From Bacillota bacterium (GTDB lineage Bacteria > Bacillota > Ch66 > Ch109), in the NCBI GenBank assembly GCA_050952625.1, contig JBMNLH010000001.1:81056-145055 (forward strand): 64,000 nt of DNA, given 5' to 3'. This document shows positions 39,463-58,409 of this stretch, piece by piece. Position 1 is the first letter of the stretch; every line of letters starts with the position of its first letter. The position numbers were made by a program, and so were the translations under genes. The notes beneath the pieces are model-generated. The model was not told the origin of the DNA. It did no database searches and saw only the letters and a program-made list of their open reading frames with translations.

Positions 39463-39463
39463 G

Positions 39464-39925
39464 GTGGGCATGAATCGACCACCCATTCCGGGGGGACCCG
39501 GGGGCAGACCAAGAAATACAAGCGGAGGTCGAAGTAACCTTGACAATTCCGCGGTCCGGGATGCCCTGCAAAACGTCAGGCAACTGCTGGATAAAGACCA
39601 GGACCCGTACGGAGAGTTATTAATCCAAACAGCCGAGGCAATGGGCCGGCACCTAGCCAATAACCGGATGACCACGGCCCAGATCCGGAAACTCTTCTCC
39701 GAAGTGCGGAAACTTAATTTTAAAGACGACGGGCCTTACAAGACCAATATGATGCGGGCCAAACTGGCCTATACTGCCGGCCGTCACCGCGAAGTTGGTG
39801 ACCTCCAGCAGGTATTAGACAAAGCCTTAATCGAAGTGGGGACCAGCGAAGAAAAATTTAACCGTTTTGAAAACTTTTTTGAAGCCATTGTGGCCTACCA
39901 TAAGAAATACGGCGGTAAAGATTAA
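39464..39925 (+). CDS. csm2: Csm2 small subunit
   Basis: A ~150 aa helical protein between cas10 and csm3, with a Gly/Pro-rich N-terminus followed by a helical core. Confidence 0.75.
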   Translation: MGMNRPPIPGGPGGRPRNTSGGRSNLDNSAVRDALQNVRQLLDKDQDPYGELLIQTAEAMGRHLANNRMTTAQIRKLFSEVRKLNFKDDGPYKTNMMRAKLAYTAGRHREVGDLQQVLDKALIEVGTSEEKFNRFENFFEAIVAYHKKYGGKD

Positions 39926-39970
39926 GAACGAAGAATTAGGGGTTAAGAAGACAGGGAGGAGGCTTAAGCG

Positions 39971-40804
39971 GTGACTGAACTAATAATGGAAGGCAAATTA
40001 GTCATGACTGGCCTGATTAAGGCCTGCACCGGACTGCATATCGGCGGGTCCCCGACTGGTTTAGATATTGGCGGCGTGGATAAGTCTGTCATTAAGGACC
40101 CAGGAGGTAAGCCCTATATCCCCGGCAGTTCGCTCAAGGGGAAAATGCGCAGTCTGCTGGAAAAAAGTGAAGGACTGGTTACTTCGTCCAGCCTGGTAGT
40201 TACTAAAAAAGGCGGGATCCACGACACCATTCGGATGCACATGTGCAATTCGCCAACTTGTGCTGTTTGCAATATTTTCGGCCGGACCAACGGGCGAAAA
40301 AAATTAGCTGACGAATCAGATCTAAATATTGAGAACGGGACCCTGCCGCGTTTGATAGTGCGGGATGCGTATCTGGTTGAGGACAGTATCCCGCGGGAGA
40401 TGAAAGAACACTTGGATTTGGAATGGACCGAGGTCAAGTTTGAAAACTCAATTGACCGTATTACATCTGCCGCTAACCCCCGACAGACTGAACGGGTGCC
40501 GCGGGGAGCAGAGTTTAGTTTTCAAATGGTCTATACGGTTTATACTCCGGCAGACCGAGATGACTTCAGCAAGGTGACCAAGGCCTTACGGCTGTTGGAG
40601 GATGACTACCTGGGCGGGGCCGGCAGCCGGGGTTACGGACAAATCCTTTTTCATAACCTGAAGCTATATTGGAATTCAGTCAATGACTATGAAACCGGGA
40701 ATATTAATCTAGCGACCAAAGAGCCCTGGCTAGCGGCGGATACCCTCAGCCAGTTGATGGAACAAATGGTTGAGGCCGGGGGCGTGGCCGGGCTTAAAGA
40801 ATAG
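39971..40804 (+). CDS. csm3: Csm3 (Cas7 backbone RAMP)
   Basis: GLHIGGS...KPYIPGSSLKGKMRSLLE G-loop motif plus the RAMP C-terminus GSRGYGQI. Confidence 0.9.
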   Translation: MTELIMEGKLVMTGLIKACTGLHIGGSPTGLDIGGVDKSVIKDPGGKPYIPGSSLKGKMRSLLEKSEGLVTSSSLVVTKKGGIHDTIRMHMCNSPTCAVCNIFGRTNGRKKLADESDLNIENGTLPRLIVRDAYLVEDSIPREMKEHLDLEWTEVKFENSIDRITSAANPRQTERVPRGAEFSFQMVYTVYTPADRDDFSKVTKALRLLEDDYLGGAGSRGYGQILFHNLKLYWNSVNDYETGNINLATKEPWLAADTLSQLMEQMVEAGGVAGLKE

Positions 40805-40816
40805 CGGGGCGATAGC

Positions 40817-41809
40817 ATGAAAGCACACATCGTGAAAATGCATTTTACAGCGCCCCTGCACTTAGGCAGCAAGGAAGCAATGCTGGAGAACACCCTGCAG
40901 CATATCCCATCCGATGTTGTTTTTTCCGCGCTGTGCAACGTGTATCGCCACCTCTACGGCAAACAAGCTTTAGAGTCGCTGCTGGCGGAACAAGCACAGT
41001 CGGCCGGCTTCCTATTGTCATCAGCCTTTCCTTATTACCGGGATGCCTATTTTTTGCCCCGGCCTTTAAACTTTGACTTAACCCGCTATGGCTTTGAACC
41101 GAAAAAGGCCAAACGGGTGAAATATCTGGAATATAACCTGATGCACCGGGTGTTGGCGGGTAAGTTTCAAGCCGCGGATTTGGAGAATTATGTCGCTGAG
41201 GCGGTGCAGGGCCTGCTTTTGCCCCGGGAGTATCAGGGTCTGAAAATCTGCCGCGAGGTTGAAATACCGCGGGTCGCCCTGGACAGCCTGACTGCTGCGT
41301 CAAATATCTATTACTTTAACCAGGTGACCTTTACCCGGGAGGCCGGTCTTTACTGTCTGGTCCGGTGTGCGCCGGAATTATGGGGCCGGCTCAGGACCTG
41401 TTTTCGTGTCTTGGGCGATGAAGGAATCGGCGGGGACCGGACTTCCGGCAAGGGAGGATTTACCGTCGAATTTCCAGGCGAACTGGCTTTTCCGCAACTG
41501 GGTCAGCCGGCCAGCCATGTCTTATTGTCCCTGTATTATCCCAGTTCTGATGAGGCGGGAAGCCTGGAGGCTGAGTATTCGTTAATCAAACGTTCTGGTT
41601 ATGTCTACTCTTCAGAGGAAACCGGCCTGAGAAGGAAAAGCGTCACCATGCTGGCCGAAGGGGCAGTAGTCTACGCTGATTCTCCTCCAGTTGGGAAGCT
41701 CGTGGACCTGACACCGCCCGGGTTTGACAAGCACAAAGTCTGGCGCAATGGCCTGGCCTTCACGGTGGCGTCAGCCCTGGGGAAAGGAGGAGGGGAAGAT
41801 GCCGGGTAA
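40817..41809 (+). CDS. csm4: Csm4 (Cas5-group RAMP)
   Basis: 330 aa between csm3 and csm5, with a C-terminal Gly-rich region (GDEGIGGDRTSGKGGF). Confidence 0.8.
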   Translation: MKAHIVKMHFTAPLHLGSKEAMLENTLQHIPSDVVFSALCNVYRHLYGKQALESLLAEQAQSAGFLLSSAFPYYRDAYFLPRPLNFDLTRYGFEPKKAKRVKYLEYNLMHRVLAGKFQAADLENYVAEAVQGLLLPREYQGLKICREVEIPRVALDSLTAASNIYYFNQVTFTREAGLYCLVRCAPELWGRLRTCFRVLGDEGIGGDRTSGKGGFTVEFPGELAFPQLGQPASHVLLSLYYPSSDEAGSLEAEYSLIKRSGYVYSSEETGLRRKSVTMLAEGAVVYADSPPVGKLVDLTPPGFDKHKVWRNGLAFTVASALGKGGGEDAG

Positions 41810-42950
41810 ACTCAAGTATCGCCTGGAGGTCTTGACCCCGGTGCATATTGGCAGCGGGCAAAAACTGCTGCCGGCGGATTATATTCTTGATCCCGAGACG
41901 CAGGAGGTTATTCGGGTCGACCTAAATGCCCTGTTTAGTGACCGCTCTTTTCCGGTCGGACGTTTTATCGCGGCGATTAAAGAGCCTGGCTTTAGTCTGC
42001 AGCGGAAATTTTATCAGTCAGGGCGCATGTATCCCCTGTACCGGCTGGCAGCAGCCGATACGCTAAACGAGCTTAACCAGCACATTGGCCGCCCGGCCGG
42101 GGCCATTCTCGAACACATAAAGGAGGCCGGCCAGCCCTATCTCCCGGGGAGTTCGCTGAAAGGAGCCTTGCGTAGTCTGGTCGTTCGCTGCTTGATTGCG
42201 CAAAACCCTGATTCTTACGAAGAAAGGCTCAGACAAAACATGCAAGGAGACAGGAGAAGCCGAAAGGAGTTTTTCTCCACTTCCGCTGAAGAACGCGTAG
42301 TCGGCAACCCCAATTTTAGTCTATTTAAGTCCCTGCAGGTTAGCGACAGCTCAACGTTAAACCCACAGCAGCTTCAATTGGGCTGTACGCGGGTCCTTTC
42401 CTTAACCCGACGTGGGTTCCGCTGGAAGGACCTGGGTCAGAACACGAACGTGGATCGTCCAGAGATGGCAACGCCGATTTTTTTTGAAGCCATTCCGGCT
42501 GGGACCACCCTAACCGGCACCTTAAAGGTAGATGAGACCTTGCTCAAAGGAGAAATGGCGCAATTGCTCAGGTACCCGCCGGCCAGCAGAACCGCCCTGC
42601 TGGAACTAACGCGGATCTGCCGGGAAGGCAGCCGGGAACTGTTGCGCAATGAAGAGGAGTTTTTCACGAAAATTTCCTTTGCCCCGGGTGTTCAGGCGGT
42701 CAAAGGTATACTGTCGATTGAGCAGGACTGCAACGCTAATCAGATGATTATCCCCTTGGCCTGGGGGACTGGTTATCTGGCCAAAGCGATGGGCTGGAAG
42801 ATTGATCCCGATTTGTTTCGGGAGGTGCGAGACCGATTCAGACTGGGCCGGCCGGGGTTTGAATTTCCAAAATCTCGAAAGATTATTTTCACGCAGGGTA
42901 AACCGTCTGGTTTAATGGGCTGGGTTAAGATCACCCTGGGAGAGGAATAA
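41799..42950 (+). CDS. csm5: Csm5 (Cas7-group RAMP)
   Basis: MPGKLKYRLEVLTPVHIGSG...PYLPGSSLKGALRSLV. The ATG at 41799 is preceded by GGAAAGGAGGAGG; the ORF-track start at 41724 lies inside csm4. Confidence 0.85.
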   Translation: MPGKLKYRLEVLTPVHIGSGQKLLPADYILDPETQEVIRVDLNALFSDRSFPVGRFIAAIKEPGFSLQRKFYQSGRMYPLYRLAAADTLNELNQHIGRPAGAILEHIKEAGQPYLPGSSLKGALRSLVVRCLIAQNPDSYEERLRQNMQGDRRSRKEFFSTSAEERVVGNPNFSLFKSLQVSDSSTLNPQQLQLGCTRVLSLTRRGFRWKDLGQNTNVDRPEMATPIFFEAIPAGTTLTGTLKVDETLLKGEMAQLLRYPPASRTALLELTRICREGSRELLRNEEEFFTKISFAPGVQAVKGILSIEQDCNANQMIIPLAWGTGYLAKAMGWKIDPDLFREVRDRFRLGRPGFEFPKSRKIIFTQGKPSGLMGWVKITLGEE

Positions 42951-42953
42951 CTG

Positions 42954-43882
42954 ATGCTCAAGGTAATTAAAGTTAATATCGAACTCAAACCCGTCGAACC
43001 TATTGAACTGCCAGTTTATAAAGGTTCCACCTTTCGGGGGGATTGGGCCAGGTACTTAAAGAGATGGTCTGTATCCGGCGGGACCGGCAGTGCCGTCGGT
43101 GTTCCATAAGTAATAAATGCAGCTATACCTTCGTCTTTGAAACCGCAACTTATTATGCCGGGCAGCCTCGGGATTCCGGGGGTGTGCCGCAGCCGTTTGT
43201 CTTGGAACCACCTCTGGAGGAAGAAACCAGATACGAAGTTGGCCAAACAATCAATTTCAGTTTAGTTTTGATGGGGCGGGGGGTAGATTATCTGCCCTAC
43301 TTCCTGTCCGCCTTTGATTTTATGGGGGAGCGGGGAATCGGACGCCGGCGGGGTCGGTTTGAGTTGTTCCGCGTGACTGACAGCTATTCGGGAGAGGTAG
43401 TCTACGACCGGGAAAGCGGTGAGGTTAACTCGCTGTTGACCCCCCGAAACCTTTCAGACCTGCTTCTGAAAAGCGAGGCGTGCCAAAGCTGTTGCCTGAC
43501 TCTGCTCACCCCGCTTCGTTTAAAACAAGGGGGCAGCCTGACCGAACAATTCAACTTTGAATTACTCATTCGAGCTATTCTAAGGAGAATAACCTATCTC
43601 AACCAGTATTTCGGTGATCAAGAGATAGAACTGGATTATAAACAGCTTATCGATCAGGCCAAAGAGATCAAAACCAGGGCCAGAAATATAGCCTGGCGGG
43701 ACTGGGAAAGGTATTCAAGCCGGCAGGATACCCGGATGAAACTGGGCGGAATAGTTGGCGACATAGAGTTCGCCGGAGAAATTACCCCTTTTTGGCCTTT
43801 TCTGTTAATGGGGCAGGAAATCCACATTGGCAAGAATACTACCTTTGGCCTGGGAAAATATTTAGTGGAACGATCAGGCTGA
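42954..43882 (+). CDS. cas6: Cas6 (crRNA endoribonuclease) of the III-A module, with a frameshift in a G6 run at 43035-43040
   Basis: Frame 0 from the ATG at 42954 gives MLKVIKVNIELKPVEPIELPVYKGSTFRG, then hits a stop. The track ORF (43043..43882) continues ...GQVLKEMVCIRRDRQCRRC... and carries the Cas6 G-rich loop GEITPFWPFLLMGQEIHIGKNTTFGLGKY. Inserting one G yields GSTFRGGLGQVL. Confidence 0.8.
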
Positions 43883-44343: not shown

Positions 44344-46179
44344 GTGAGAATGATTGACCCGCTCAGAGGGGATTGCGACGATGTACTTCTCGAAATTATC
44401 ATCGGCTCGCTTGTGCCAGTGGTGAGAATGATTGACCCGCTCAGAGGGGATTGCGACGGCATTAACCTCCTCCTCCTCCTCTTCTAATTCAGTTAATCTG
44501 TGAGAATGATTGACCCGCTCAGAGGGGATTGCGACCTGTCCCCGTAAATACGAGGACTTCTCTCAGATACCTGAGGTGAGAATGATTGACCCGCTCAGAG
44601 GGGATTGCGACAATTCCTCCTTGTTTTTTTTCGGTTGGTTTAGAGATTTCGTGAGAATGATTGACCCGCTCAGAGGGGATTGCGACTGTCACCTTTGTCA
44701 GCGTCCCCGCCATCATTGCCGGAGCCGCGTGAGAATGATTGACCCGCTCAGAGGGGATTGCGACACCAGATGCGGCCAGCATGGATCCACCGCTTGCTAA
44801 AACGTGAGAATGATTGACCCGCTCAGAGGGGATTGCGACTTTTCCTGTAATTCTGGCAATGATAAGATGTATCCAACTGTGAGAATCATTGACCCGATCA
44901 GAGGGGATTGCGACAAATAGCAATTAGAATTATTACCATGAAATTTCGGATCTGGGTGAGAATCATTGACCCGATCAGAGGGGATTGCGACTTACTAGAA
45001 TAAACACTTCTCCGCGCGATTTTTTTCCTGGTGAGAATCATTGACCCGATCAGAGGGGATTGCGACACTGGAGAGGAAGAAATAATGCTCATAATGGCAT
45101 TGACTTGTGAGAATCATTGACCCGATCAGAGGGGATTGCGACCCACTGCCGACCGGCAGCAAGCAGATTTTCATCCCCGTGAGAATCATTGACCCGATCA
45201 GAGGGGATTGCGACAAGGATTAAAGAATATAGCTCCTACAACTTTGTTGTGTGTGAGAATCATTGACCCGATCAGAGGGGATTGCGACGATATTTTTACG
45301 ATTAGTCCTATCCCCTGCAGCATCGGTGAGAATCATTGACCCGATCAGAGGGGATTGCGACGACTGCCCGCCGACCGCACTCGATGGCCGAAACCATTTT
45401 GTGAGAATCATTGACCCGATCAGAGGGGATTGCGACTTCTCCTTCTTTTTTGGTTTCGTTTCGTTTTCGACGGCTGGGTGAGAATCATTGACCCGATCAG
45501 AGGGGATTGCGACCAAAAGCAAGCTTACGACGGGATATGTTTTAGCTAGTGTGAGAATCATTGACCCGATCAGAGGGGATTGCGACAACTGAAGGTTTAC
45601 GTTTTTCTTGTTATCCCAGCTAATTGTGAGAATCATTGACCCGATCAGAGGGGATTGCGACCTATTGTTGCAGCACCACCACAACGCTCACAAATAAAAA
45701 GTGAGAATCATTGACCCGATCAGAGGGGATTGCGACCTAATGCCATAACTTCTCAACTCATCAATTGATTTCGGTGAGAATCATTGACCCGATCAGAGGG
45801 GATTGCGACATATTTTTCCTCCCATGGCTGGAACGGGTCAGAACGGTGTGAGAATCATTGACCCGATCAGAGGGGATTGCGACACACAAACTCTGGAACC
45901 CTCTCCCCGTCCTGCCTCTTTGCGTGAGAATCATTGACCCGATCAGAGGGGATTGCGACCTTGAAACTCATCGCACATCGCTCACTTTCTCTTATTTGTG
46001 AGAATCATTGACCCGATCAGAGGGGATTGCGACTTTTAGAGCAGGTCGCTTAGCAGGATTTTTCTCCTTTTTTGTGAGAATCATTGACCCGATCAGAGGG
46101 GATTGCGACACTCACTGTTCCCTTTTTATGCCCCATGATGATATCCCAAGGGGAGAATCATTGACCAGATTCGCCGAAT
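44344..46179 (+). CRISPR. CRISPR array 1: 25 repeats of 36 bp plus one degenerate terminal repeat; spacers 36-42 bp
   Basis: Repeats 1-7 read gtgagaatgattgacccgctcagaggggattgcgac; repeats 8-25 read gtgagaatcattgacccgatcagaggggattgcgac; a degenerate copy lies at 46150. First repeat starts include 44344, 44422, 44500, 44576 and 44651. The leader is at the cas6 side, so the array is transcribed on the + strand. Confidence 0.95.
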
Positions 46180-46312: not shown

Positions 46313-46368
46313 TATTAGGGTGATCGGTTAACTTGTCATTGCAACTTCTATCAAGGAGGTTAAAAGAA

Positions 46369-47229
46369 ATGGGTTTTCTAAAGGATTTAGGCAGTCTCAC
46401 CGGCAGCATTGCAGGGGTGGTTTTGTCTACTCCAGTGACTTTGGCTGGTGGTTTTTTTGATAGTGATACCTTAAAGGAGGCGGCTCGCGGGATACACTAT
46501 GTTACCGCCAGTACTGGTTCCTTAATCGGTCAAACCGTCAGTGGCGGTCTGGATGTGGTGGAAGGAGTTTTAACTAGGAATGACAGGATAAGTCAGCAGG
46601 GTCTTGATGAGGTTGGTGATTCTTTTAAAACTGTTATCAATGGGGTAATTGGTGGTACCGCTAGTCTCTTGGATAATAGTGGTAAAGTAATTACTGGGGT
46701 ATTTGAGGGTGATACGGCCACCGCAATGCAAGGAGCTAAAAATCTTGCTAAATTTGGCATAATTACGGCCATCGGAATTGGGCTGGCTGATGCGATTGGG
46801 ATTGTTGATGTAAATGGGAATGAGACGGTAGCCCACGCTCAAGTACCTAGTAGTTTTAGTTATGATCAAGATGATGCTGTTTTGGATTATTCAGATATTG
46901 GTGAACCGCATGGGCTAGTACCGGACGTTCCGGTTGATGACATTCCTGGAGTTGATAATGGTATGGCTCATCCATCCGCTACGGAGGTATTAATTGATCT
47001 GGGTTGCCAGGATGGAACGGAGCATGTCGTGGATCCGCCCCGGGATCCGGGGATGGTCCAGGCATTTTTAACGGAGCATGGATATACTGAGACTCCTGAT
47101 GGTTACGAGGTCCATCACATTATTCCTCTGTCCGAAGGTGGAGCCGACCATCCGGCTAACATGGTATTAGTTTTGGAAGAAGAACATGATCAGATTACGG
47201 CGGCCCACCAGAGGTTTTATCAATGGTAA
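46369..47229 (+). CDS. Hypothetical protein with a Gly-zipper-rich N-terminal region and a C-terminal HNH-type nuclease motif
   Basis: The ATG at 46369 follows an AAGGAGG RBS. The C-terminus EVHHIIPLSEGGADHPANMVLVLEEEHDQITAAH fits the HNH HH-N-H pattern. The N-terminus has GxxxG-like runs (ITAIGIGLADAIGI). Confidence 0.5.
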   Translation: MGFLKDLGSLTGSIAGVVLSTPVTLAGGFFDSDTLKEAARGIHYVTASTGSLIGQTVSGGLDVVEGVLTRNDRISQQGLDEVGDSFKTVINGVIGGTASLLDNSGKVITGVFEGDTATAMQGAKNLAKFGIITAIGIGLADAIGIVDVNGNETVAHAQVPSSFSYDQDDAVLDYSDIGEPHGLVPDVPVDDIPGVDNGMAHPSATEVLIDLGCQDGTEHVVDPPRDPGMVQAFLTEHGYTETPDGYEVHHIIPLSEGGADHPANMVLVLEEEHDQITAAHQRFYQW

Positions 47230-47438: not shown

Positions 47439-49151
47439 ATGATAATGGAGAAAAAACCGTGGAAGCTAATTACCTTTATCGGGATGGGTTATTATCAGCC
47501 GACGAATTATAAGATTAAAGGAGTAGAATATCCTGACACCAAATATTTTCCCTTAGCTGCGGCTAAATGGTTGATTGAGCAAAGGGGAGATCAAGGAAAA
47601 ATTGTAGTACTGGTCACTAAAGAAGTTATTGAAGATACAAAAAACCAGAATTTACAGGGATTTAAGGAAGCCTTATTACTTGACCCACAATTTAAACATC
47701 TAAATGTGCAGCAAGAAATATTTCCTTGGAAAGAAGAAAGCGAGCTCTGGGAAATATTTAAGATAATCGTTAATTCGGTAGAGAATGGCGAAACCGTATA
47801 TTTTGATATTACTCATTCCTTTAGATTTATCCCGTCCATCGTTTTGTTGGCTTTGATTTATTTAAAAGAGGTTAAAAGGATAGACCTTCAGTCGGTGTTC
47901 TACGGAAACTTTGAGGCAACGAAATCAGGCTTTGACTATGCACCCGTATTTGATATTCTCCCTTTTGTCGATCTCGCGGAATGGCTGTTTGGGGCGCGAG
48001 TATTTAAAGAATTTGGGTTAGGCAGTATTTTAGGTGACAAAATTAAGACGGTGCAGGCTGAAATACGGAGAAAAAGCAAAGAAGGGCCGGAGAAGTTAAT
48101 TAAGCTGGGGACCCGCTTGAATAATCTTTCAAGTGCTTTAGCTGTGGGTAATGCCATAGGTGTGGGTGAAAACGCCCTGAAATTGACTAATTTTATAAAT
48201 CAAAATAAAGATAAAATAGAAACGGAAGTAAGGGAGTATGTCCCGCCATTGGTGCCGTTAATAGAGGGTATTGTGGATGAATATGCTCAATTTGGGCTTG
48301 AGGATATTCAGTTAAATATGAAGGAATTAGAGAGAGAAGAAAGTTTAATTCGCTGGTATCTAGAAAAAAAAGATATCGGAAAAGCCCTGCAACTGTTTAG
48401 GGAATTTATAGTAAATACTGTTTTATATATTAATGCTGGGTCGACTCGTGAGTGGCTAAAACTGGATAATAGATTGCCCGTAGAACGGCAATTACATAAT
48501 TTAAAGGTCGCTAATACAGAGGTTGGTCGCCTCTGGGATGAAATTGCATTCGAAAGAAATTCAATTGCCCATTGTGGTTTTAATAATCAAGACAAATTTA
48601 ATCCGAATAAAGAGTATCGAAATTTACAGTTGGTTACCAGGCCTGACCATAATCTTGAGGAATGGATTTCTAGAATTGCTTCAGAGGTACAAGCTTTAGC
48701 CTTCGATGAAGGATCGGTCCTGCTAACACCATTGGGGCTGTCGAAAGGGTTATTATTTACCTTATGGCAGAGATATCCTGATATTGAGCGGACCATAATT
48801 CTCACATCGGCAGAGACGGTCAACAGTATCGAAGAAGTGAAAAAGATAACCGGATACTCAGGGGAGATCAAGATCTGCCTAGTTCAAGATCCATTTACTG
48901 CTTTTGACCAGATTGAAAATAAGTGGAAGGAAATAAAAGATTTTCTTAAAAGTAATATTATTGTTAATATCACTGGCGGTACCACAGCACTTCAATATTT
49001 GGTGGAAAAAATACAACAAAGGCTTATTAACCAGGATGTGAGAATAACTACGGTTGCGGCTATTGATCGAAGGCCCGTGCAGGAACAAAAAGAAAACCCA
49101 TGGGTAGCCGGACAGATAATTAAATTAAAGGAAGACCATCAGGAAGATTAG
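47439..49151 (+). CDS. csx1: Csx1-family CARF-HEPN ribonuclease with an additional C-terminal Rossmann/CARF-like domain
   Basis: N-terminal CARF with the DxTH motif (VYFDITHSFRFIPS), a HEPN Rx4H motif (FERNSIAHCGF), and then ~190 more aa with VLLTPLGLSKGLLFT...TIILTSAE...VNITGGTTALQYL, which looks like a second CARF-type fold. Confidence 0.75.
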   Translation: MIMEKKPWKLITFIGMGYYQPTNYKIKGVEYPDTKYFPLAAAKWLIEQRGDQGKIVVLVTKEVIEDTKNQNLQGFKEALLLDPQFKHLNVQQEIFPWKEESELWEIFKIIVNSVENGETVYFDITHSFRFIPSIVLLALIYLKEVKRIDLQSVFYGNFEATKSGFDYAPVFDILPFVDLAEWLFGARVFKEFGLGSILGDKIKTVQAEIRRKSKEGPEKLIKLGTRLNNLSSALAVGNAIGVGENALKLTNFINQNKDKIETEVREYVPPLVPLIEGIVDEYAQFGLEDIQLNMKELEREESLIRWYLEKKDIGKALQLFREFIVNTVLYINAGSTREWLKLDNRLPVERQLHNLKVANTEVGRLWDEIAFERNSIAHCGFNNQDKFNPNKEYRNLQLVTRPDHNLEEWISRIASEVQALAFDEGSVLLTPLGLSKGLLFTLWQRYPDIERTIILTSAETVNSIEEVKKITGYSGEIKICLVQDPFTAFDQIENKWKEIKDFLKSNIIVNITGGTTALQYLVEKIQQRLINQDVRITTVAAIDRRPVQEQKENPWVAGQIIKLKEDHQED

Positions 49152-49205: not shown

Positions 49206-50492
49206 ATGAGGTGGAATGTGGCTAGAGTTCTCATTTCAGGCATAGGTACTGGCCAGCTTAATGGTCAGGATGATTATGGGCTTGAACACCGAAGAAAATA
49301 CCGAACAGCAACTTATCTTATTGATCAGAAAAAATATGAAACAGAGTTTATAGCCAGTGCATTAATAGAACATTACCAAATTGAAAAGGTGTTTCTTGTT
49401 GGTACCGTAAAATCAATGTGGGAAAATGTATATGAGTATTTTGCTGGTGCTAACCTGGATGAAGAATATTATTTCCATTTGGTTGAAGCAATTGAAAAAT
49501 CAAATTATTTAGATCAATGCTTTGACATGGACTATCTTGGCAACGTGAACGAAGCAATGAACTGTTTTCTTAAGTCGAGTGACTCACGTTGTTTTTTAAT
49601 TAAGTACGGCTTGAATGAAGAGGAAATTATCTATAATTTCGGGATATTTCAGGATATCGCGGAGTTGTTGGAAAGTGGAGACGAGGTGTTTCTGGACATA
49701 ACTCATTCTTTTCGGTCATTGGCTCTATTTCAATACACAATGGTCAATTACATAGACAATTTGTCACACAAAAACATTGAGGTTAAGGGCGTGTTTTACG
49801 GCATGCTCGAAACTGCTCGGGAGATGCAGGGCATTACACCGGTGGTTAATCTTAAAACAGTGTATGAATTAAGCAATTGGGTAAAAGCCATTCATGAGTT
49901 AAAGAGTTACGGAAATGGTTATATAGTATCGGATTTATTAAGAGATTATGATAAACGACTAGCTAACAAGATCAAAATGTTTTCGGACCTGGTTAATTTA
50001 AACTACCTGGCTGGGGTAAAAAACCAAGTGGACAATCTGTCGAGATTAAACTTTGAACACATAAATGGGCCGGGCAGTATGGTGGCAGAGTATCTAAATC
50101 GTTATGTTAACCGGTTCGCGTCAATCAGAAATGAGTGGGAGTTCCAGTTTGAAATGGCAAAGTGGTATTTTGAAAATAAACGGTATGCTACGGGTTATAT
50201 TGCTTTGATAGAATCGATATTAACTCGAATTTGCGAATTGTTAGCTTTAGATCCTAAAATTAAAAACAATAGAGATGAAGCGAAAAATATTCTCTATAAT
50301 AACCGATCAGGTGCTAATTTGAGAGAGGTCAGGTATAAGTTCGATGCGATTAATAGAATCCGTAAGAATGTGGCGCATGTCCTTGATGATCGGGACGAAA
50401 GGAATTATTTGACGGATGTGCGGCAGTCAGCTTATTACATCCGGAGTTTAGAAGGATTATTAAAGCGTCTGTCGGCTGATGATTTAAGGTGA
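49206..50492 (+). CDS. csx1: Csx1-family CARF-HEPN ribonuclease (paralog 2)
   Basis: CARF with VFLDITHSFRSLALF and a HEPN Rx4H motif (INRIRKNVAHVLD), at 428 aa. The start may instead be the GTG at 49221. Confidence 0.75.
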   Translation: MRWNVARVLISGIGTGQLNGQDDYGLEHRRKYRTATYLIDQKKYETEFIASALIEHYQIEKVFLVGTVKSMWENVYEYFAGANLDEEYYFHLVEAIEKSNYLDQCFDMDYLGNVNEAMNCFLKSSDSRCFLIKYGLNEEEIIYNFGIFQDIAELLESGDEVFLDITHSFRSLALFQYTMVNYIDNLSHKNIEVKGVFYGMLETAREMQGITPVVNLKTVYELSNWVKAIHELKSYGNGYIVSDLLRDYDKRLANKIKMFSDLVNLNYLAGVKNQVDNLSRLNFEHINGPGSMVAEYLNRYVNRFASIRNEWEFQFEMAKWYFENKRYATGYIALIESILTRICELLALDPKIKNNRDEAKNILYNNRSGANLREVRYKFDAINRIRKNVAHVLDDRDERNYLTDVRQSAYYIRSLEGLLKRLSADDLR

Positions 50493-50927: not shown

Positions 50928-51917
50928 ATGCCGGATCTTAACCAATTAATAGAGGCATCGGCGATTCAGTGTAAAACATTTAATTGTACTGTGCTAACTC
51001 CGCTGTTCCTGCATGGTTGGCAGGAGACAGTGGTGACTGGCCACGGGAGACCAGTAAATAGGCCGGTCAGCGCAGAGTTCCGAATCCCCTCAATGAAAGG
51101 GGTATTGCGTTACTGGTGGCGGACCTTACAACCACTTAAACTTCAAGCTTTGCAGCAAAAGGAACAAGAATTGTTTGGCGGAACTAGCGGTGATAAAGGA
51201 CAAAGATCCCCTTTATTGCTGAAAGTCAGCATATTGGATAGAGGTCCAAGCTCAGAAAATATGAACACATCATCCCTGTGTCCGCATAAAGGTGGCATGC
51301 CATCACTGGCCCTGCCTGCGGACCGAGAGTTTGCTTTTGAGCTTGCAGTGCATCAGCGCAATGCCGCGAGATTATCTGAATACGAAGCAATATGTCAATT
51401 CATGTTTCTCTTGGCTGGTTTCGGACAAAGGTCTCGTCGGGGAGCGGGGTCGCTTCAGGTTGAAGGGCTATGTTGGCAAAACATTAAGGAGTATCAAAAC
51501 TCTTTGCGGGAAACTTTGCAATCCCTAAATTGCGCGAATGATTTTGAGTTTCCAAATGGTAATACGGGCGGATGTTTGCTACAACGCAAACGACGGGAGT
51601 CAACGGAGGCGAGGGGGGCTTTTCACCCGATTTTGCAGCGGGTCTGGGTTGGATCCGATTCTCGGACTGCAGAAGAGGCTAGACGCCAAATCAGTAATGC
51701 CGGCCATCTAGCTAATCCTAGTGGAAAAGCCCAGTATTTAGGCAATGTAGGGGGCAAAGGGATTGCTCGTTTAGCTTCGCCTCTTTTGTGTACGGTTAGA
51801 AAAATCGGAGAAGCCTACTGCCCCATTGTGAGTGAAGTCAGCAGCCCGCATCTAGGGAAAAACGTATACATACAACGACGAAACGAGTTTTTAGAGGCTC
51901 TGGGGGTGAAGGTGTGA
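50928..51917 (+). CDS. cmr1: Cmr1 (Cas7-group RAMP) of the III-B module
   Basis: TVLTPLFLHGW...IPSMKGVLRYWWRTL and a G-rich loop GFGQRSRRGAGSL, as the first gene of the cmr operon. Confidence 0.7.
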   Translation: MPDLNQLIEASAIQCKTFNCTVLTPLFLHGWQETVVTGHGRPVNRPVSAEFRIPSMKGVLRYWWRTLQPLKLQALQQKEQELFGGTSGDKGQRSPLLLKVSILDRGPSSENMNTSSLCPHKGGMPSLALPADREFAFELAVHQRNAARLSEYEAICQFMFLLAGFGQRSRRGAGSLQVEGLCWQNIKEYQNSLRETLQSLNCANDFEFPNGNTGGCLLQRKRRESTEARGAFHPILQRVWVGSDSRTAEEARRQISNAGHLANPSGKAQYLGNVGGKGIARLASPLLCTVRKIGEAYCPIVSEVSSPHLGKNVYIQRRNEFLEALGVKV

Positions 51918-53659
51918 GTGAGGTCGGCAATTTGCTGGTTTTTAGCGTAGGCCCAGTTCAGAGTTTTATTGCCTCGGCCAGGAAGATTGAGGATTTATGG
52001 AGCGGGAGTTACATTCTTTCCCATCTAGCTGAACAAGCCATGAGCGTTATCTTGGAACAGGCGGAAGCTAAACAAGTTAAGGCAGAAATGATTTATCCTC
52101 CGATGAAATCATCAACCGGTCCGCAGCATCAGCAAGCTGGAAACCGGGTAGCTCATATTGAAGTAGCGTCACAGCCTAACCGGTTTATTTGTTGGTTGGA
52201 AGCAGACAGTCAAACGGTATCAGTAATAGCTCGACAGGCAGAAAAAAAGGTCCGGGACAGTCTGGTTGACCTGGGCGAATACGCCTTGCGCCGCGTTTTC
52301 CCTAAAGATGCTAATCGGGATTATATGTTGGACCTGCACCGGCAGCAGGTGGATAACCTGCTGGAAGTTTACTGGGCCACGGAGCCGTTTGCTCTGACTG
52401 ATGACTATAATCAAGCTCGAAACCAGGTGGAAAAGCGGTTGGCGGCGGTAAAAAACGCCCGTCCCTATCATCCCTATCGGCAGCAGGGATTGGTGTGTAC
52501 CCTCTGCGGGGAACAGCAGGCCTTAATTTCCCGATGTTTGCCTGATCAAGAATGGATTACGTACGCTCTCATGAAAGAAACATTGGCCGGTACTTGGAAT
52601 AAACGGCATGATCAGTTTAAAGCCCCGCTGGAGTTAGATGCGGATGACCAGAAGGTGGGGCGGATAAAAGACAACGAGGGTTTGTGCGGCATTTGTCTGA
52701 GCAAACGGCTAGCTCGGGATTACTTTAAAGATAAGTACCAGGCCCCCAATGCCTTTGCGCCTTTCCCTTCGACCCAGGATATCACCGGTGGCAGCAAGTA
52801 TTACGCCATTTTAATGATGGACGGGGACGACATGGGTAAGTGGGTTTCCGGGCAAAAGAAAAACCCGCCAGTAAAAGTAGATATGCAGTATCAGCAGGAT
52901 TTGAGCAAAAAATTGGAGGAGTTTGCCCTCACCTCAGTTCCTAAATTGGTGAATGAGTTTGAAGGTAAACTCATTTATGCCGGGGGAGACGATGTCTTGG
53001 CTTTTGTCCCGGTCCGACACGCCCTGAACTTAGCCCGTTCACTGCGCCTGGCTTTCAGCGATCCCCAAAAAGGGTTAGACCCGGAGGCCACTGCTTCGAT
53101 CGGGGTGGTGGTGGTTCACGCCAAAGCTCCGCTGGCAATGGCCTTGGAGTATGCCCGGCAAATGGAAAGCAAGGCCAAAGCCTATCGGCACGCTAATGGT
53201 CGGGCCAAAGACGCACTGGGATTAGCGGTGATCACCCATAGCGGCGAGATTCGGGAAGCTATATTACCTTGGGCAATGGATGGCCAGCGATATACTGGGG
53301 AAAAAGCCCAATGTTCAATTGGTTATTTGCTGGCTTTGTTTCAGTTGGTAGAGACTGATCTCTCGGTCAGCTTCATTGAGCATTTTGCCCAGGCTTTTTT
53401 ACCGCTGCTCGGGGCGGATTTGAAAGGCCAGCGCAAGTTTAAAGTCTTAGACGAACCAGAGTTAAACCAAAAACTGCTGTGTAGTGAGATGCACCGGGTA
53501 TTGGAGCGGTCAAAAAAAGAAGACTCACGGCGGCAGGATTTGGCTAAGCAGGCGCAAATCATGATTCAACTCCATGAGCTAATGCCTTCTGGCCTGCAAT
53601 TCATCCATCTGTTAGAAATGGCGCGGTTCTTTAAGCGTACCGGAGGTGATAAGTCATGA
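51914..53659 (+). CDS. cmr2: Cmr2/Cas10, a minimal HD-less form with a Zn finger and GGDD cyclase palm
   Basis: 581 aa with no HD motif. A treble-clef CxxC…CxxC (VCTLCGEQQ…GLCGICLSKR), YYAILMMDGDDMGKW, and the GGDD motif (LIYAGGDDVLAFVPV). Confidence 0.8.
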   Translation: MSEVGNLLVFSVGPVQSFIASARKIEDLWSGSYILSHLAEQAMSVILEQAEAKQVKAEMIYPPMKSSTGPQHQQAGNRVAHIEVASQPNRFICWLEADSQTVSVIARQAEKKVRDSLVDLGEYALRRVFPKDANRDYMLDLHRQQVDNLLEVYWATEPFALTDDYNQARNQVEKRLAAVKNARPYHPYRQQGLVCTLCGEQQALISRCLPDQEWITYALMKETLAGTWNKRHDQFKAPLELDADDQKVGRIKDNEGLCGICLSKRLARDYFKDKYQAPNAFAPFPSTQDITGGSKYYAILMMDGDDMGKWVSGQKKNPPVKVDMQYQQDLSKKLEEFALTSVPKLVNEFEGKLIYAGGDDVLAFVPVRHALNLARSLRLAFSDPQKGLDPEATASIGVVVVHAKAPLAMALEYARQMESKAKAYRHANGRAKDALGLAVITHSGEIREAILPWAMDGQRYTGEKAQCSIGYLLALFQLVETDLSVSFIEHFAQAFLPLLGADLKGQRKFKVLDEPELNQKLLCSEMHRVLERSKKEDSRRQDLAKQAQIMIQLHELMPSGLQFIHLLEMARFFKRTGGDKS

Positions 53660-54795
53660 AACAGCTTTTTATGCAACCAGTAGATACCTTCTTTTTCCGT
53701 AATCAAAAGGATTTTACCCCCGGGGTGAATTCGATGGCTGCTTCAGTTTTTCCGCCCCGCCCGGGAACGGTCTACGGAGCTTTGCGCAGTGCTTATATCA
53801 ACCAATACAGCACTTTCGAGCAGTTTCGTACCGGGTGTGAGGGCCAGGTTAAAGAGTGGATGGGAACCCCGGTCGAACCGGGTCGGTTTCGGCTGCGCGG
53901 GTGTTTTCTTCACGATCAACAGCAGCCGATCTTACCGTTGCCTCTGGATTACCAAGTTGTCGAAACTGAGCATACGGGCGAAGCAGCCGAAATAGCCTAT
54001 CCGCTGAAACTGACCTTAGACGTTGTTCCCGCTTCTGATGGACGTCAGTACCGACTCTACGGGGTTCGGGATGAAAAAAGCGGCTCCAGCGCAGGAGCTT
54101 ATCTCCCGTTGTCAGACTGGAAAAAAGCATTGCTTGAGCCGTCAAGCGTACATATTTATCGAAGCAGCCACTGGATGATCCAAGAGGACAAGCTCGGAAT
54201 CGCCCGGGATTGGGCCACCCGAACCGCTAGAGAGGGCATGCTCTATCAAATTAAAACAAACCGTTTTATTGAAGCGAAAGAACCGGCCCGAAGCCCGGGC
54301 TTGTTAGCGGTCTGTACGGATGCTCCGGATTTTTCCGAGATTTCCTTGGTCCGGCTGGGGGGACGGAATCGTCCCTGGGCACTTAAATCCATACCGGACG
54401 AGTTTGGGATGTTTAAAGCCAAAGAGGAACGGTTAATTGAAGAACGGATTGCCAGCAGCCAAATTGCCCGTTTGATACTGTTGACCCCAGCCATTTGGCG
54501 GGAAGATTCGTCGTTCTATCAACAGCAAGCTGGAGTTTTTCAACTGCGGCCGGGCCTCTCCTTCCCTGTTTTGGCCGAAGCAATCGGCCGGCCAGTATTG
54601 GTCGGGGGATGGGACATTGTCCGGAATGCGCCGAAACCAAGGATTCAGGCGGTCCCAGCCGGCACGGTTCTCTATCTGCGAGTATCGAAAGAACAGGCCT
54701 CAGCTTTGGTCCAAGGCTTGAAAGAAACGATGGTTAGTGATGAGTTGGCTTACGAAGGTTATGGCTGGGCAGTTTGCGGACCAGTCAAATTATAA
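53656..54795 (+). CDS. cmr3: Cmr3 (Cas5-group RAMP)
   Basis: The N-terminus LFMQPVDTFFFRNQKDFTPG...PRPGTVYGALRSAY is the Cmr3 hallmark. Confidence 0.75.
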   Translation: MKQLFMQPVDTFFFRNQKDFTPGVNSMAASVFPPRPGTVYGALRSAYINQYSTFEQFRTGCEGQVKEWMGTPVEPGRFRLRGCFLHDQQQPILPLPLDYQVVETEHTGEAAEIAYPLKLTLDVVPASDGRQYRLYGVRDEKSGSSAGAYLPLSDWKKALLEPSSVHIYRSSHWMIQEDKLGIARDWATRTAREGMLYQIKTNRFIEAKEPARSPGLLAVCTDAPDFSEISLVRLGGRNRPWALKSIPDEFGMFKAKEERLIEERIASSQIARLILLTPAIWREDSSFYQQQAGVFQLRPGLSFPVLAEAIGRPVLVGGWDIVRNAPKPRIQAVPAGTVLYLRVSKEQASALVQGLKETMVSDELAYEGYGWAVCGPVKL

Positions 54796-54807
54796 GGGGG
54801 TAGGAAT

Positions 54808-55710
54808 ATGTTTAACCTTAAGAAAATGCTATTTTTGCACGCTATTACTTCAGTTCATGCCGGCAGCGGAAGTGAACTGGGTTTAGTGGATTTGCCGATC
54901 CAGCGGGAAAAACACACCGGTTATCCGAAAATTGAAAGCTCTTCCCTGAAAGGGGCGGTCAGAGCCACGGTTAGTGCGGTTGTCAACAGCGATGTTAAAT
55001 CCCCTGAGGATAAAGAGATGATTGAGGTGGTCTTTGGTAAAGAGGGCGATGAGAAGAAGAACAATGCGCAGGCCGGAGCAATTTCCCTGTCGGATGCGCG
55101 GCTTCTGCTTTTCCCCGTGCGTTCGCTACGCGGCGTGTTTGCCTGGGTTACTTGTCCGCTGGTGCTTAAACGGTACAATCAAGAACTAAAACTATACTGC
55201 CCTGACCAACCGCTGTTGCCGATTCCAGAAACAAAAACCGCGGCCGGAGAGGCGATTATCGTTAATCCTCGAGAAACTCAGAAACAGGTGGTGCTTGAGG
55301 AATACACGTATGAAGTAAAGGTGGATGACGCCTGCCGGAAATTGGCAGAATACTTACAAGAAAAGGTTTTTCCTGGATTAGATAATGGAATTAGGGAACG
55401 GCTGTTAGTCCTGCCAGATGATGATTTTACGGATTTTGTGACCTTATCGACCGAGGTTAATGCCCGCATTCGGATAGACCCCGAGACCGGTACCGTTAAA
55501 GATGGGGCCCTCTGGTATGAGGAGAATGTTCCCCCAGAGAGCGTTTTTTACAGCTTCTGTTTTATTGGCCAGGGCCGCTTAACCGGCCAGGAGAAAAAAG
55601 CAGAAGAAATCTGGCAGTACCTCAAGCGGGATGATATATTTCCAGAGGTCTTCCAACTGGGAGGCAACAGCACCCTGGGCAAAGGCATTTTGCGTCGAAT
55701 CTGGCGTTAA
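54808..55710 (+). CDS. cmr4: Cmr4 (Cas7 backbone RAMP)
   Basis: AGSGSELGLVDLPIQREKHTGYPKIESSSLKGAVRA and a C-terminal G-rich loop GGNSTLGKGILRRIW. Confidence 0.85.
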   Translation: MFNLKKMLFLHAITSVHAGSGSELGLVDLPIQREKHTGYPKIESSSLKGAVRATVSAVVNSDVKSPEDKEMIEVVFGKEGDEKKNNAQAGAISLSDARLLLFPVRSLRGVFAWVTCPLVLKRYNQELKLYCPDQPLLPIPETKTAAGEAIIVNPRETQKQVVLEEYTYEVKVDDACRKLAEYLQEKVFPGLDNGIRERLLVLPDDDFTDFVTLSTEVNARIRIDPETGTVKDGALWYEENVPPESVFYSFCFIGQGRLTGQEKKAEEIWQYLKRDDIFPEVFQLGGNSTLGKGILRRIWR

Positions 55711-55734
55711 TTTACGGAATTAGGGGGGCGGACA

Positions 55735-56196
55735 ATGAGCAAGGAAAAAGCAAAGGCAAAAGCAAAAGAAAAAGCTGCCGCTACGCGGGTGGGCATTGAA
55801 AACGGCCGGGCTGCTTATGCCTTTCAAAAGATTAACGATTACGTGCAGGATAATATTAATAATGAAAAGGGGCTGAAGGAGTACCGTTCCTATCTGAAAA
55901 AACTTCCGGCCATGATCCAGGTAAATGGGTTAGGCCAAACCCTGGCCTTCTGTTTTGCCAAAGGAGGACAATATCAAGTTATTTACGGTCAGCTTGAGGA
56001 GTGGATTCGGCAGCAGCAATCGACCTTGATCAAGCAGTATGATAATAAACCAGCCAAGAAGTTTGTGGAACTAGTCGTGATGATGGATAGCCGCGATTAC
56101 CGAATCATAACCAATGAGGTTATTGCGGTGCTTGATTGGATGCGGCGTTTCGCTGACGGGCTGATTCGCCCGCTGGTTAACGAGCAGGAGGGTTAA
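55735..56196 (+). CDS. cmr5: Cmr5 small subunit
   Basis: A 153 aa helical protein between cmr4 and cmr6 (YRSYLKKLPAMIQVNGLGQTLAFCFAKGG). Confidence 0.7.
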   Translation: MSKEKAKAKAKEKAAATRVGIENGRAAYAFQKINDYVQDNINNEKGLKEYRSYLKKLPAMIQVNGLGQTLAFCFAKGGQYQVIYGQLEEWIRQQQSTLIKQYDNKPAKKFVELVVMMDSRDYRIITNEVIAVLDWMRRFADGLIRPLVNEQEG

Positions 56197-56211
56197 GGGG
56201 GTGGAGGATTC

Positions 56212-57438
56212 GTGTACTATCATCCCAAAGATACGCAAGACATCTTTGAAAAGAAAATTAGTAATTTGAACGAGAGCGTAGATAATTTATGGTACCGAGT
56301 GCATTATTTTCAACAGAACTCGTTGCATGATAAAAGTCAAAATAGATTGGTTAAACTGCCGAAGAATTTGCGTTTAAATCGGCCCACCCAGTCGTTTCTT
56401 AACCAGCGATTGCAGCAACGGGCCCAGTTGTTAAGCCATCTGCAGGCCAGTTGTGAGTTGGCCGGGCTGAAGGGATTTTTACAAGGAAGACTAATCCACG
56501 GACTGGGCGGGGCGCATGTCCGGGAAACCTCGCTGACGCTGCATCCCCTCTACGGTCTGCCTTATATCCCGGGTTCGAGTCTGAAGGGAGCGGTCCGCAA
56601 CTGGGTTTTACAGGCTTTTTTTCAGGGTGACGAAGATTCCTTGAAGAAGGAAACTCATTTAGATCAAACGAAGGCTGAAATACGGACAATCTTTTTTGAC
56701 TTGTTTGGAAGCGAGGAACAAGCCGGATTGGTTGAGTTTTTTGATGCCTTTGTTGAGTCTGATTTTTCTCTGCAACCGGATATTTTGACTGTTCATTTTC
56801 CTAAGTATTACAGTGGCGAGAAATCGCCGACCGATGATCAGAATCCCAATCCGGTCGATTTCTATACCATAAATTGTTCTTATCTACAGTTTTTCTTGGC
56901 GGTTAAGAAGGGGCGATCAACCCGGTCCAGCTTAAATAGTGCTCAATTGATGGAATTAGCCGTAGCTTGGACGCAAAAAGCTTTGAGCGAGTTGGGGATT
57001 GGCTCCAAGACTTCAGCGGGCTATGGCTATTTTTCCAAGTTTGAGCAAATTAAGGTTAATAACCTTCGCTCAATTACTGCTGTCAATCAGTCTAGTCGAA
57101 AAAACACTGACAACAAGTCAGCGGATAGTTCAGTAAAAGGCCCGGCCCCGGCCAAGGACAAAAATAGTCCGGTTGGTCAAGTGGAAAGTCAACCAATGGA
57201 TCTAGGACCCGGGCTAATATTGGTCCGGCTAATTAACCAGTTGGCTGAGAAAAGTGAGCAGGACCGCAACCGCAGCAAGGGAGAAGTCTACCAACAGGTA
57301 CTGGCTTTGGCTGAGCAAGGGGAACTGGAACCAGCCCGATCGCTTAAAGCGTATTGGGAAAGGTCCGGTGATTGGAAAAAACCGAATAAAAAGCAGCAGC
57401 AGAAGATAGATGCGATAAGAAAGATATTAGGAGAATAA
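56212..57438 (+). CDS. cmr6: Cmr6 (Cas7-group RAMP)
   Basis: GLPYIPGSSLKGAVRNW G-loop and a C-terminal GIGSKTSAGYGYF. Confidence 0.8.
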   Translation: MYYHPKDTQDIFEKKISNLNESVDNLWYRVHYFQQNSLHDKSQNRLVKLPKNLRLNRPTQSFLNQRLQQRAQLLSHLQASCELAGLKGFLQGRLIHGLGGAHVRETSLTLHPLYGLPYIPGSSLKGAVRNWVLQAFFQGDEDSLKKETHLDQTKAEIRTIFFDLFGSEEQAGLVEFFDAFVESDFSLQPDILTVHFPKYYSGEKSPTDDQNPNPVDFYTINCSYLQFFLAVKKGRSTRSSLNSAQLMELAVAWTQKALSELGIGSKTSAGYGYFSKFEQIKVNNLRSITAVNQSSRKNTDNKSADSSVKGPAPAKDKNSPVGQVESQPMDLGPGLILVRLINQLAEKSEQDRNRSKGEVYQQVLALAEQGELEPARSLKAYWERSGDWKKPNKKQQQKIDAIRKILGE

Positions 57439-58409
57439 TGATAACAACAAAGCCTTATTCTATTACCTATTCCCGTTTTCGCTTCACCCTTCGGGCAGAA
57501 GAAGATGCTCGCTTACCGGCTTATTTGGGCTCAACCTTGAGGGGAGCTATGGGCCGGGCTTTCAGGCGAGGGAGTTGTCTAAGTTTGCGCAGCCACTGTT
57601 CAGACTGTATGTTCTCCTCACGCTGCGCCTACGCCTATATTTTTGAAACCTCACAGGCTTCAACGATAAACAAAGGAGCCGGGGTTGAGCATTTTTATAT
57701 TCCTCACCCCTTTGTTATCGAGCCGCCCCTGGACGGAAAGACCATTTTCAAAGCAGGAGAGGAACTGACATTCGATCTGCTGCTGATCGGCAGCGGATTA
57801 CACTTTTTCCCTTTTTTCATTGCCGCCTTTGCCCAGGCAGCGGCGGAGGGTCTGGGGGCAGGACGTCATCGTTTCCGCTTGGAAAACGTGGCCCAATGGT
57901 TGGATGATGAGTTGGTTTTACTTTGGAATGGGGGTAATAGGCTGCTTGGAAATCCAGTCGCTCAGGTCTTAACCAATGATCTTGAGGCTGGAATTGACTG
58001 TAGGGAAATTACCCTGCACCTGCAAACCCCGCTGCGGATAAAAGAACGCGGTCACCTGGTGAATGAAATAAGCTTTCCTTTGTTAATCCGCAGTATTTTT
58101 CGCCGCCTGGATTTATTGGGTCGCGTTCATGGCGATGGTCCGCTAATTCTGCCGTATACCGATTATCTTCAACAGGCGGCGGCAGTTAGTGCGGTGCCAG
58201 AAGCTAATTCATTATACTGGACAGAATGGCGGCGTTATTCCAATCGCCAAAAGGTTCACATGAATATGGGAGGATACTGTGGCAGTATCCGGTATCAGGG
58301 TGATCTCGGCCCTTTTCTTCCTTACCTTAAAATGGCAGCCGTCCTGCACCTGGGCAAAGGAACAGTGTATGGCCTGGGCAAAATCGCCATTGAGGTTACC
58401 GAGAGGTGA
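57438..58409 (+). CDS. cas6: Cas6 (second copy, associated with the Cmr module)
   Basis: GSTLRGAMGRAF, a Cys cluster CLSLRSHCSDCMFSSRC, and the G-rich loop GGYCGSIRYQGDLGPFLPYLKMAAVLHLGKGTVYGLGKI. It is paralogous to the Cas6 at 42954. Confidence 0.8.
   Translation: MITTKPYSITYSRFRFTLRAEEDARLPAYLGSTLRGAMGRAFRRGSCLSLRSHCSDCMFSSRCAYAYIFETSQASTINKGAGVEHFYIPHPFVIEPPLDGKTIFKAGEELTFDLLLIGSGLHFFPFFIAAFAQAAAEGLGAGRHRFRLENVAQWLDDELVLLWNGGNRLLGNPVAQVLTNDLEAGIDCREITLHLQTPLRIKERGHLVNEISFPLLIRSIFRRLDLLGRVHGDGPLILPYTDYLQQAAAVSAVPEANSLYWTEWRRYSNRQKVHMNMGGYCGSIRYQGDLGPFLPYLKMAAVLHLGKGTVYGLGKIAIEVTER

Follow-up and report, generated by a model that had tools for sequence, protein, structure and literature searches.

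What does a Csx1 ribonuclease gain from a further domain placed behind its catalytic centre, and might that domain destroy the very messenger that switches the enzyme on? This question is raised by a type III CRISPR locus in a 64,000-nucleotide stretch of DNA (the window) from a member of the Bacillota (assembly GCA_050952625.1, contig JBMNLH010000001.1, positions 81,056 to 145,055), in which an open reading frame (ORF) at 47439..49151 on the + strand encodes a 570-residue Csx1 protein. A preliminary description had suggested that this protein is a CARF-HEPN-CARF fusion, able both to sense and to degrade cyclic oligoadenylate (cOA). Our analysis supports its assignment as a Csx1-family ribonuclease in which the HEPN domain is followed by a second CARF, distantly related to the first. 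Our preferred explanation, to which we give a probability of roughly 0.55, is that it is a self-limiting Csx1, the tail CARF of which degrades the activating cOA as a built-in ring nuclease; that sensing and degradation are united in one protein is something that we infer.

The ORF has exactly the limits and length first described, and GGAGG stands 6 nucleotides before its ATG. The features of the gene and of its downstream neighbour, with the evidence for each, are as follows.

47439..49151, + strand: csx1 with CARF-HEPN-CARF architecture, whole gene (ORF list, 570 residues; full-length PADLOC match; AlphaFold2 model)
47460..47954, + strand: N-terminal sensor CARF, residues 8-172 (TIGR02221 and TIGR02549 matches; AlphaFold2 secondary structure)
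47805-47825, + strand: DITHSFR, a DxTHG-type motif, residues 123-129 (in the N-terminal CARF)
47958..48308, + strand: all-helical middle domain, residues 174-290 (AlphaFold2 helices 174-285)
48318..48704, + strand: HEPN ribonuclease domain, residues 294-422, with R321-E322 and R-x4-H (motif, conservation, structural matches)
48555-48572, + strand: RNSIAH (R-x4-H), residues 373-378 (in the HEPN domain)
48708..49133, + strand: C-terminal second CARF, residues 424-565 (profile matches, CARF-fold model)
48729..48749, + strand: motif I of the second CARF, PLGLSKG, residues 431-437 (loop following strand 1)
48966..48995, + strand: motif II of the second CARF, NITGGTTALQ, residues 510-519 (loop following strand 4)
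49065..49112, + strand: family-specific block DRRPVQEQKENPWVAG, residues 543-558 (following strand 5)
49206..50492, + strand: second Csx1 paralog, 428 residues, CARF-HEPN only (55 base pairs downstream; PADLOC, TIGR02221)

As had been noticed from the sequence, both Csx1 proteins carry a DITHSFR and an R-x4-H motif; in the 428-residue protein these lie at residues 164-170 and 386-391 (RKNVAH), and there is no tail domain. This shorter protein matches the PADLOC CARF2--CARF_HEPN profile PDLC01826 (expect value, E, 1.2e-126) and TIGR02221 (163 bits), and at 24% identity (BLASTP E 2e-13) the two are paralogs. The Pfam domain PF27248 (named MJ1674_2nd) is carried by P0001, a protein 99% identical to the 570-residue Csx1. 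The tail, which had been put at about 190 residues beyond the HEPN motif, measures 192 after H378; its extra domain had been placed from residue 380, but begins at about residue 424, residues 380-422 being the final two HEPN helices in the AlphaFold2 model. A TGGT signature is indeed present, in VNITGGTTALQYL (residues 509-521), though it does not end the protein as had been thought: 49 residues come after it.

The architecture itself is already catalogued, and what is new here is a divergent member and an untried biochemical question. The whole protein matches the PADLOC profile PDLC01838, named CARF2--CARF_HEPN_CARF (E 9.3e-106, residues 9-563 against profile positions 3-521 of 522), together with the other CARF_HEPN_CARF profiles PDLC01839 (E 2.3e-100) and PDLC01840 (E 2.5e-74). 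The PADLOC proteins share its three-domain order and C-terminal CARF family, with no architectural difference; profiles PDLC01838-01840 probably go back to the CARF classification by Makarova et al. (2020). The N-terminal part scores above curated cutoffs for TIGR02221 cas_TM1812 (93.6 bits, cutoff 76.25) and TIGR02549 DxTHG (38.5, cutoff 21). No curated NCBIfam or Pfam profile matched the tail alone above cutoff, the CARF matches there (Card1 CARF, Csa3, TIGR02710) being sub-threshold; against the C-terminal 140 positions of the three CARF_HEPN_CARF profiles it gave E values of 3e-38 to 3e-32. With the CARF-fold model, these matches show that the tail's likeness to CARF domains, first proposed from its signature, is not due to chance. 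Two CARF domains fused together had already been remarked upon in 2014 (PMC4012209). Fusions of this kind had been called known but uncommon: the former is borne out by their place in PADLOC, and the latter is true only in a relative sense, with 445 relatives of the tail, and 96 fusions among the best 150.

Structure prediction agrees with this assignment. The full-length AlphaFold2 model (71 sequences; predicted local distance difference test, pLDDT, 93.3; predicted template modelling score 0.85) has domains at residues 8-172 (CARF), 174-290 (helical), 294-422 (HEPN) and 426-563 (C-terminal CARF). A separate model of residues 420-570 (12 sequences, pLDDT 90.1), a region for which a non-Rossmann fold had been named as evidence against a second CARF, has six strands alternating with helices in a CARF fold; its best fold matches are Can2 and Card1, although fold similarity does not tell cleaving from non-cleaving CARFs. 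In a Foldseek search of the PDB, the full-length model matched Marinitoga Csx1-Crn2 best (8y7g, E 7e-17, template modelling score 0.56-0.58), followed by the Csx1 of S. islandicus (SisCsx1 6qzt).

Other origins and identities for the tail were considered and rejected. Profile-profile alignment (hhalign) relates it to the N-terminal CARF of the same protein with a probability of 93% and E 3.5e-7, at 11% identity, on which grounds a recent duplication of that domain was discarded. PADLOC has sister profiles for fusions of Csx1, at this same end, with Csx3, Csx16 or Csx20, and one for its fusion with an unknown domain; Csx3, Csx16 and Csx20 are proven ring nucleases (PMC12409355, PMC7371418). Those three fusion profiles match our protein over its Csx1 part only; the proposed comparison with the Crn1 and Csx3 families yielded neither a CARF7 (Crn1) profile match nor a Csx3 match in the tail. 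Profile searches found no DUF1874/Crn2 match in the tail, and Crn4/Unk01 has a novel beta fold, not that of a CARF.

Conservation, computed over 71-97 fused homologs, points to a pocket in the tail that is functional. Of the 11 columns that never vary in the protein, eight belong to this domain (G433, G437, G513, G514, D543, R545, Q550 and P554); E322, R373 and H378 of the HEPN domain are likewise invariant, R321 and N374 are at least 99% conserved, and D123, T125 and R129 of the N-terminal CARF reach 96-99% (97 homologs). Because the conservation of the tail residues matches that of the HEPN catalytic residues, selection on the tail appears to be at least as strong as on the HEPN catalytic site. 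Beside the invariant glycines of motif I, S435 is 85% conserved; in motif II, N510, T512, T515, T516 and Q519 are conserved at 91-99% (N510, T512 and T515 at 96-99%, T516 as Thr in 94%), and in the DRRPVQEQKENPWVAG block R544 is found in 79% and G558 in 96%. Judged from the model, the conserved residues of the tail would lie in the loops that leave strands 1, 4 and 5 at their C-terminal ends, where the ligand face of a CARF is formed, with the DRRPVQEQKENPWVAG block probably next to motif II on this face.

How far does this pocket resemble those that cleave? CARFs that cleave cyclic tetraadenylate (cA4) have a motif I of G-T-S after strand 1 and a motif II of G-R-K (Sso2081) or T-x-G-x-K (TtCsm6), the G-[T/S]-S of motif I positioning the 2'-OH and the scissile phosphate; Can2 and Card1 lack G-T-S, do not cleave, and keep the motif-II lysine (PMC10018336, PMC10897365). 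In the tail, G433-L434-S435 stands at the G-T-S position of Sso2081 and TtCsm6, which is a partial match; in TtCsm6, activity survives T59A or S60A alone and is lost only when the two are combined (PMC10897365). Motif II aligns with the DITHSFR of the N-terminal CARF in the profile-profile alignment, with T516 opposite the conserved R129. By position, not by alignment, T512-x-G514-x-T516 may correspond to T133-x-G135-x-K137 of TtCsm6, placing T516 at the position of K137. Mutation K137A abolished cA4 binding in TtCsm6, and R172 of that protein, which lies outside motif II, holds the cyclic phosphate (PMC10897365). To judge from its spacing, D543-R544-R545 after strand 5 could supply the positive charge that is missing from motif II of the tail. 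The tail is not a sequence member of the group formed by the Crn1 ring nucleases (Sso2081, Sso1393, Sis0811, Sis0455) and the TtCsm6 CARF; it also has Thr-Thr in place of the motif-II Arg/Lys, and an invariant D-R-R...Q...P block of its own after strand 5.

The distribution of the domain, with relatives counted as 50%-identity clusters, adds a further line of evidence. The tail profile found 513 proteins at E<=1e-3, and 445 at E<=1e-10, among 1.84 billion cluster representatives. Within the best 150 relatives, 96 are 500-650 residues long with the domain C-terminal, 18 are free-standing (<=175 residues), 2 are of about 1,000 residues and 31 are of intermediate length, the last being probably fragments; our protein shares no more than 34% identity with any of the 96 cluster representatives. 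One peptide pattern retrieved 77 loci in species-representative genomes, from taxa that include Desulfotomaculum, Anoxybacillus/Anoxybacteroides, Syntrophomonas, Pelotomaculum, Chloroflexota, Riflebacteria, Obscuribacterales, Binatia, Planctomycetota and one metagenome-assembled Heimdallarchaeota genome. The domain is fused at 44 of the 77 (matches to both Csx1N and CtCARF), and some two thirds of these fused loci have Cas10, Cmr or Csm within +-6 kilobases (kb).

Free-standing homologs of 140-159 residues, at 35-46% identity, retain all of the motifs. At two loci (L001, L006) the small CARF gene directly follows a Csx1 of 424-427 residues at the end of a cmr1-6 operon, and at another (L005) it follows a CARF protein of 420 residues, 2 nucleotides upstream of a csm operon. 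Where the genes are split, the Csx1 preceding the small CARF is orthologous to our tail-less 428-residue paralog (tblastn E 1e-83 to 1e-103). In P0086 (1019 residues) and P0123 (1069 residues) the small CARF ends a protein composed of a CYTH-like N-terminus, a Cas_APE2256 CARF and an HD-CE domain; the CYTH-like N-termini read ERKYLLD and EREDKYLLD, and the module is thus also found on a non-HEPN effector. The small CARF behaves as an autonomous module, because it occurs as a separate gene beside an effector, as part of that effector, or attached to one of another type. The same pattern of free and fused forms is known for Crn2, Crn3, Csx16, Csx20 and Crn4 (PMC8284326, PMC12409355, PMC12830947). 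When small ORFs from 20 loci (98, then 79) were compared with PADLOC, the 25 most frequent families listed were all Cas7, Cas5, Cmr5 or unrelated.

A different context was seen in Abditibacteriaceae (L004 and L056-L078/L082, including Abditibacterium utsteinense, L069), where a free-standing small CARF lies near an oppositely oriented RtcB gene at at least 13 loci, at distances from a few hundred base pairs to about 4.4 kb (under 600 base pairs in about half), and frequently has a Clp_N-domain protein after it. Within 6 kb of these RtcB-linked copies, which form the most divergent branch of the family (29-32% identity), none of the Cas10, Cmr and Csm genes was detectable. This context, conserved and non-CRISPR, is reminiscent of RtcR, a CARF-containing regulator; in Proteobacteria, rtcBA is under the control of the RtcR CARF domain. 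Separately, a 99.7%-identical copy of our locus in a sibling metagenome contig (L086; JGI 3300053716, Ga0534105_03018, 1238-2945) has the fusion gene in three ORFs through indels, there being only 3 mismatches but 10 gap openings in 4.8 kb; because another copy (L085) is intact, we regard long-read indel error as likelier than a pseudogene.

Among characterised proteins, the closest solved full-length structure is that of Marinitoga Csx1-Crn2 (8Y7G/8Y6Z), which is likewise a Csx1 with a cOA-binding domain added after HEPN, and which is a proven self-limiting ribonuclease (PMC7293037). There the added domain is DUF1874/Crn2, non-CARF and of viral origin, whereas here it is a CARF, and ring-nuclease activity is proven for the former (PMC7293037) and predicted for the latter. 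The 570-residue Csx1 may be regarded as a CARF-domain functional counterpart of Csx1-Crn2, the likeness lying in the Csx1 body and the proposed self-limiting logic, not in the appended domain. Can1 and Csm6-2 also have more than one CARF per polypeptide, but in these the CARFs pair within the monomer into one pseudo-dimeric site (PMC6981274, PMC11229360); those of our protein, so dissimilar and at opposite ends of HEPN, presumably form two separate homodimeric sites.

We propose that Cas10 would make cOA, most likely cA4 as for other Csx1 proteins, and that the N-terminal CARF dimer would bind it and turn on the HEPN ribonuclease. The C-terminal CARF pair would bind the same messenger and cleave it without metal, so setting an activation threshold and switching the enzyme off; the neighbouring tail-less Csx1, drawing on the same cOA pool, would probably be switched off too. 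That the HEPN effector is active is supported by the predicted catalytic residues R373, N374 and H378 (99-100% conserved) and by the GGDD motifs of both Cas10 proteins. We favour a ring nuclease in the tail because the domain shows gene fusion and fission with Csx1, strong conservation of its pocket and a parallel in Csx1-Crn2; because motif I has Gly-x-Ser at the G-T-S position (PMC10018336) and no other ring nuclease was recognised among the large ORFs of the locus; and because Csx3, Csx16 and Csx20, all ring nucleases, sit at the same end of Csx1.

Several observations weigh against this proposal. The middle residue of motif I is Leu or Met instead of Thr, giving G-L-S and not G-T-S, and in motif II (T512-G-G-T-T516) Thr replaces the lysine (K106 in Sso2081, K137 in TtCsm6). 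The CARF7 (Crn1) profile is absent among the PADLOC matches of the tail and of 3 free-standing homologs, the tail's nearest profiles outside its own being CARF1, CasR/Csa3, CARF4 and CARF3. Crn2, Csx16, Csx20 and Crn4 are known from phage or plasmid collections; the tail CARF was not found there (no tblastn match in these collections, one marginal match in IMG/VR, and no convincing fold match in BFVD). The searchable literature yielded no experimental characterisation of this CARF-HEPN-CARF architecture, only Csm6-2 (CARF-HEPN-CARF-HEPN), Can1 and unrelated effectors. Finally, given the divergent RtcB-linked branch, the domain is not bound up with cOA turnover in every setting.

Some of these points would fit a second CARF that binds cOA without cleaving it, either to buffer it and so raise the activation threshold, or to gate the HEPN ribonuclease as an additional allosteric input, in which latter case the input could be a different ring size or a linear product. 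We think this possible but rather unlikely: Can2 and Card1, the best fold matches, are non-cleaving sensors (PMC10018336), the catalytic/binding lysine of motif II is absent (PMC10897365), and the pocket is nonetheless so highly conserved that some ligand is presumably bound; yet one would not expect a purely allosteric domain to persist as a free-standing 140-residue protein beside Csx1, or to be found on an unrelated HD effector as well, and all other domains known at this position of Csx1 (Crn2, Csx3, Csx16, Csx20) are enzymes (PMC12409355). Loss of the lysine could also mark a degenerate CARF, without ligand and kept solely for dimerisation or oligomerisation, and HEPN integrity in Csx1-Crn2 does need higher-order assembly (PMC11317161); but the ligand-face loop residues (G433, S435, G437, N510-Q519, D543, R545, Q550), not the surface helices, are the most strongly conserved of the whole protein, and the free-standing copies keep the same motifs, so that we consider this very improbable.

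The RtcB neighbourhood raises the further idea that the second CARF reads a ligand other than cOA, such as the 2',3'-cyclic phosphate ends of RNA or oligoadenylate, and couples ribonuclease activity or recovery to cleavage products. The conserved position of the Abditibacteriaceae relatives beside RtcB, away from type III genes, the control of rtcBA by the RtcR CARF, and the departure from the canonical motif II would all fit; however, the RtcB-linked copies are the most divergent of all, and where the fused genes lie near Cas10, Cmr or Csm, as they mostly do, cOA is the obvious ligand, which makes this improbable for our protein. A broader suggestion, which we hold to be unlikely though not so remote as the last, is that the tail and its free-standing relatives are a distinct CARF clade with a lysine-less pocket (NxTGGTT and D-R-R...Q...P), not simply Crn1-like, which might respond to a further signal (for instance a different ring size, linear A2>P or A4>P, or 2',3'-cyclic-phosphate RNA ends) and which would have RtcB RNA repair as its partner outside CRISPR in Abditibacteriaceae.

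The built-in ring nuclease that we favour would act within a locus that has two type III modules, between which the csx1 pair lies; every gene of the locus is on the + strand, and its remaining features are as follows.

33808-35280 and 35308-36456, + strand: two WYL-domain proteins (PADLOC WYL, E 7e-22 and 2e-26)
37048..43882, + strand: type III-A module, cas10/csm1 (HD and GGDD), csm2-5 and cas6 (NCBIfam; GGDD at residue 609)
44344..46109, + strand: CRISPR array 1, 24 copies of a 36-nucleotide repeat (0 chance matches expected)
46333-47229, + strand: HNH-domain protein, 298 residues (PF01844, 22.8 bits against a cutoff of 21.4)
50928..58409, + strand: type III-B module, cmr1, cas10/cmr2 (GGDD, no HD), cmr3-6 and cas6 (NCBIfam, PADLOC; GGDD at residue 357)
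58591-60634, + strand: three ORFs of 111, 229 and 323 residues (between the III-B cas6 and array 2)
61036..62446, + strand: CRISPR array 2, 20 copies of an almost identical repeat (repeat search)

From their GGDD motifs, both Cas10 proteins look able to act as cyclases, and NCBIfam and PADLOC searches of the large ORFs of the locus recognised no other ring nuclease. The adjacent WYL pair, just upstream of the type III-A operon, could be ligand-sensing regulators. Array 1, a composite, opens with 7 repeats that have two substitutions in common (..AATGATT..CCGCTC..), and its remaining 17 repeats follow the consensus. The repeat of array 2 is a one-base variant, the last three copies being degenerate; the two modules apparently rely on a single repeat family, although each comes with a cas6 of its own. 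The HNH protein, between array 1 and the csx1 genes, is Gly/Ala/Val-rich in its N-terminal two thirds, has its HNH domain at the C-terminus and has no PADLOC match. The three ORFs before array 2 are candidate accessory genes with no NCBIfam match and a weak LeoBC-like PADLOC match (E 9e-5). A MoxR-like AAA ATPase and VWA-domain gene pair at 29002-31148 (+ strand), matching MadB/MadC well below curated cutoffs, is unrelated.

The family is large, confidently modelled and an easy biochemical target, and would bring no conceptual surprise. Should the tail instead read a second signal, Csx1 would be under two-input control. Ring nucleases decide the outcome of type III CRISPR immunity, recovery as against dormancy or death, and if the tail is one of them, this locus would have a built-in off-switch for two Csx1 ribonucleases and two type III complexes. 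It would then represent a sixth or seventh class of Csx1-ring-nuclease fusion, one using a CARF without the canonical lysine, and the sequence rules that separate cOA-degrading from non-degrading CARFs would be refined.

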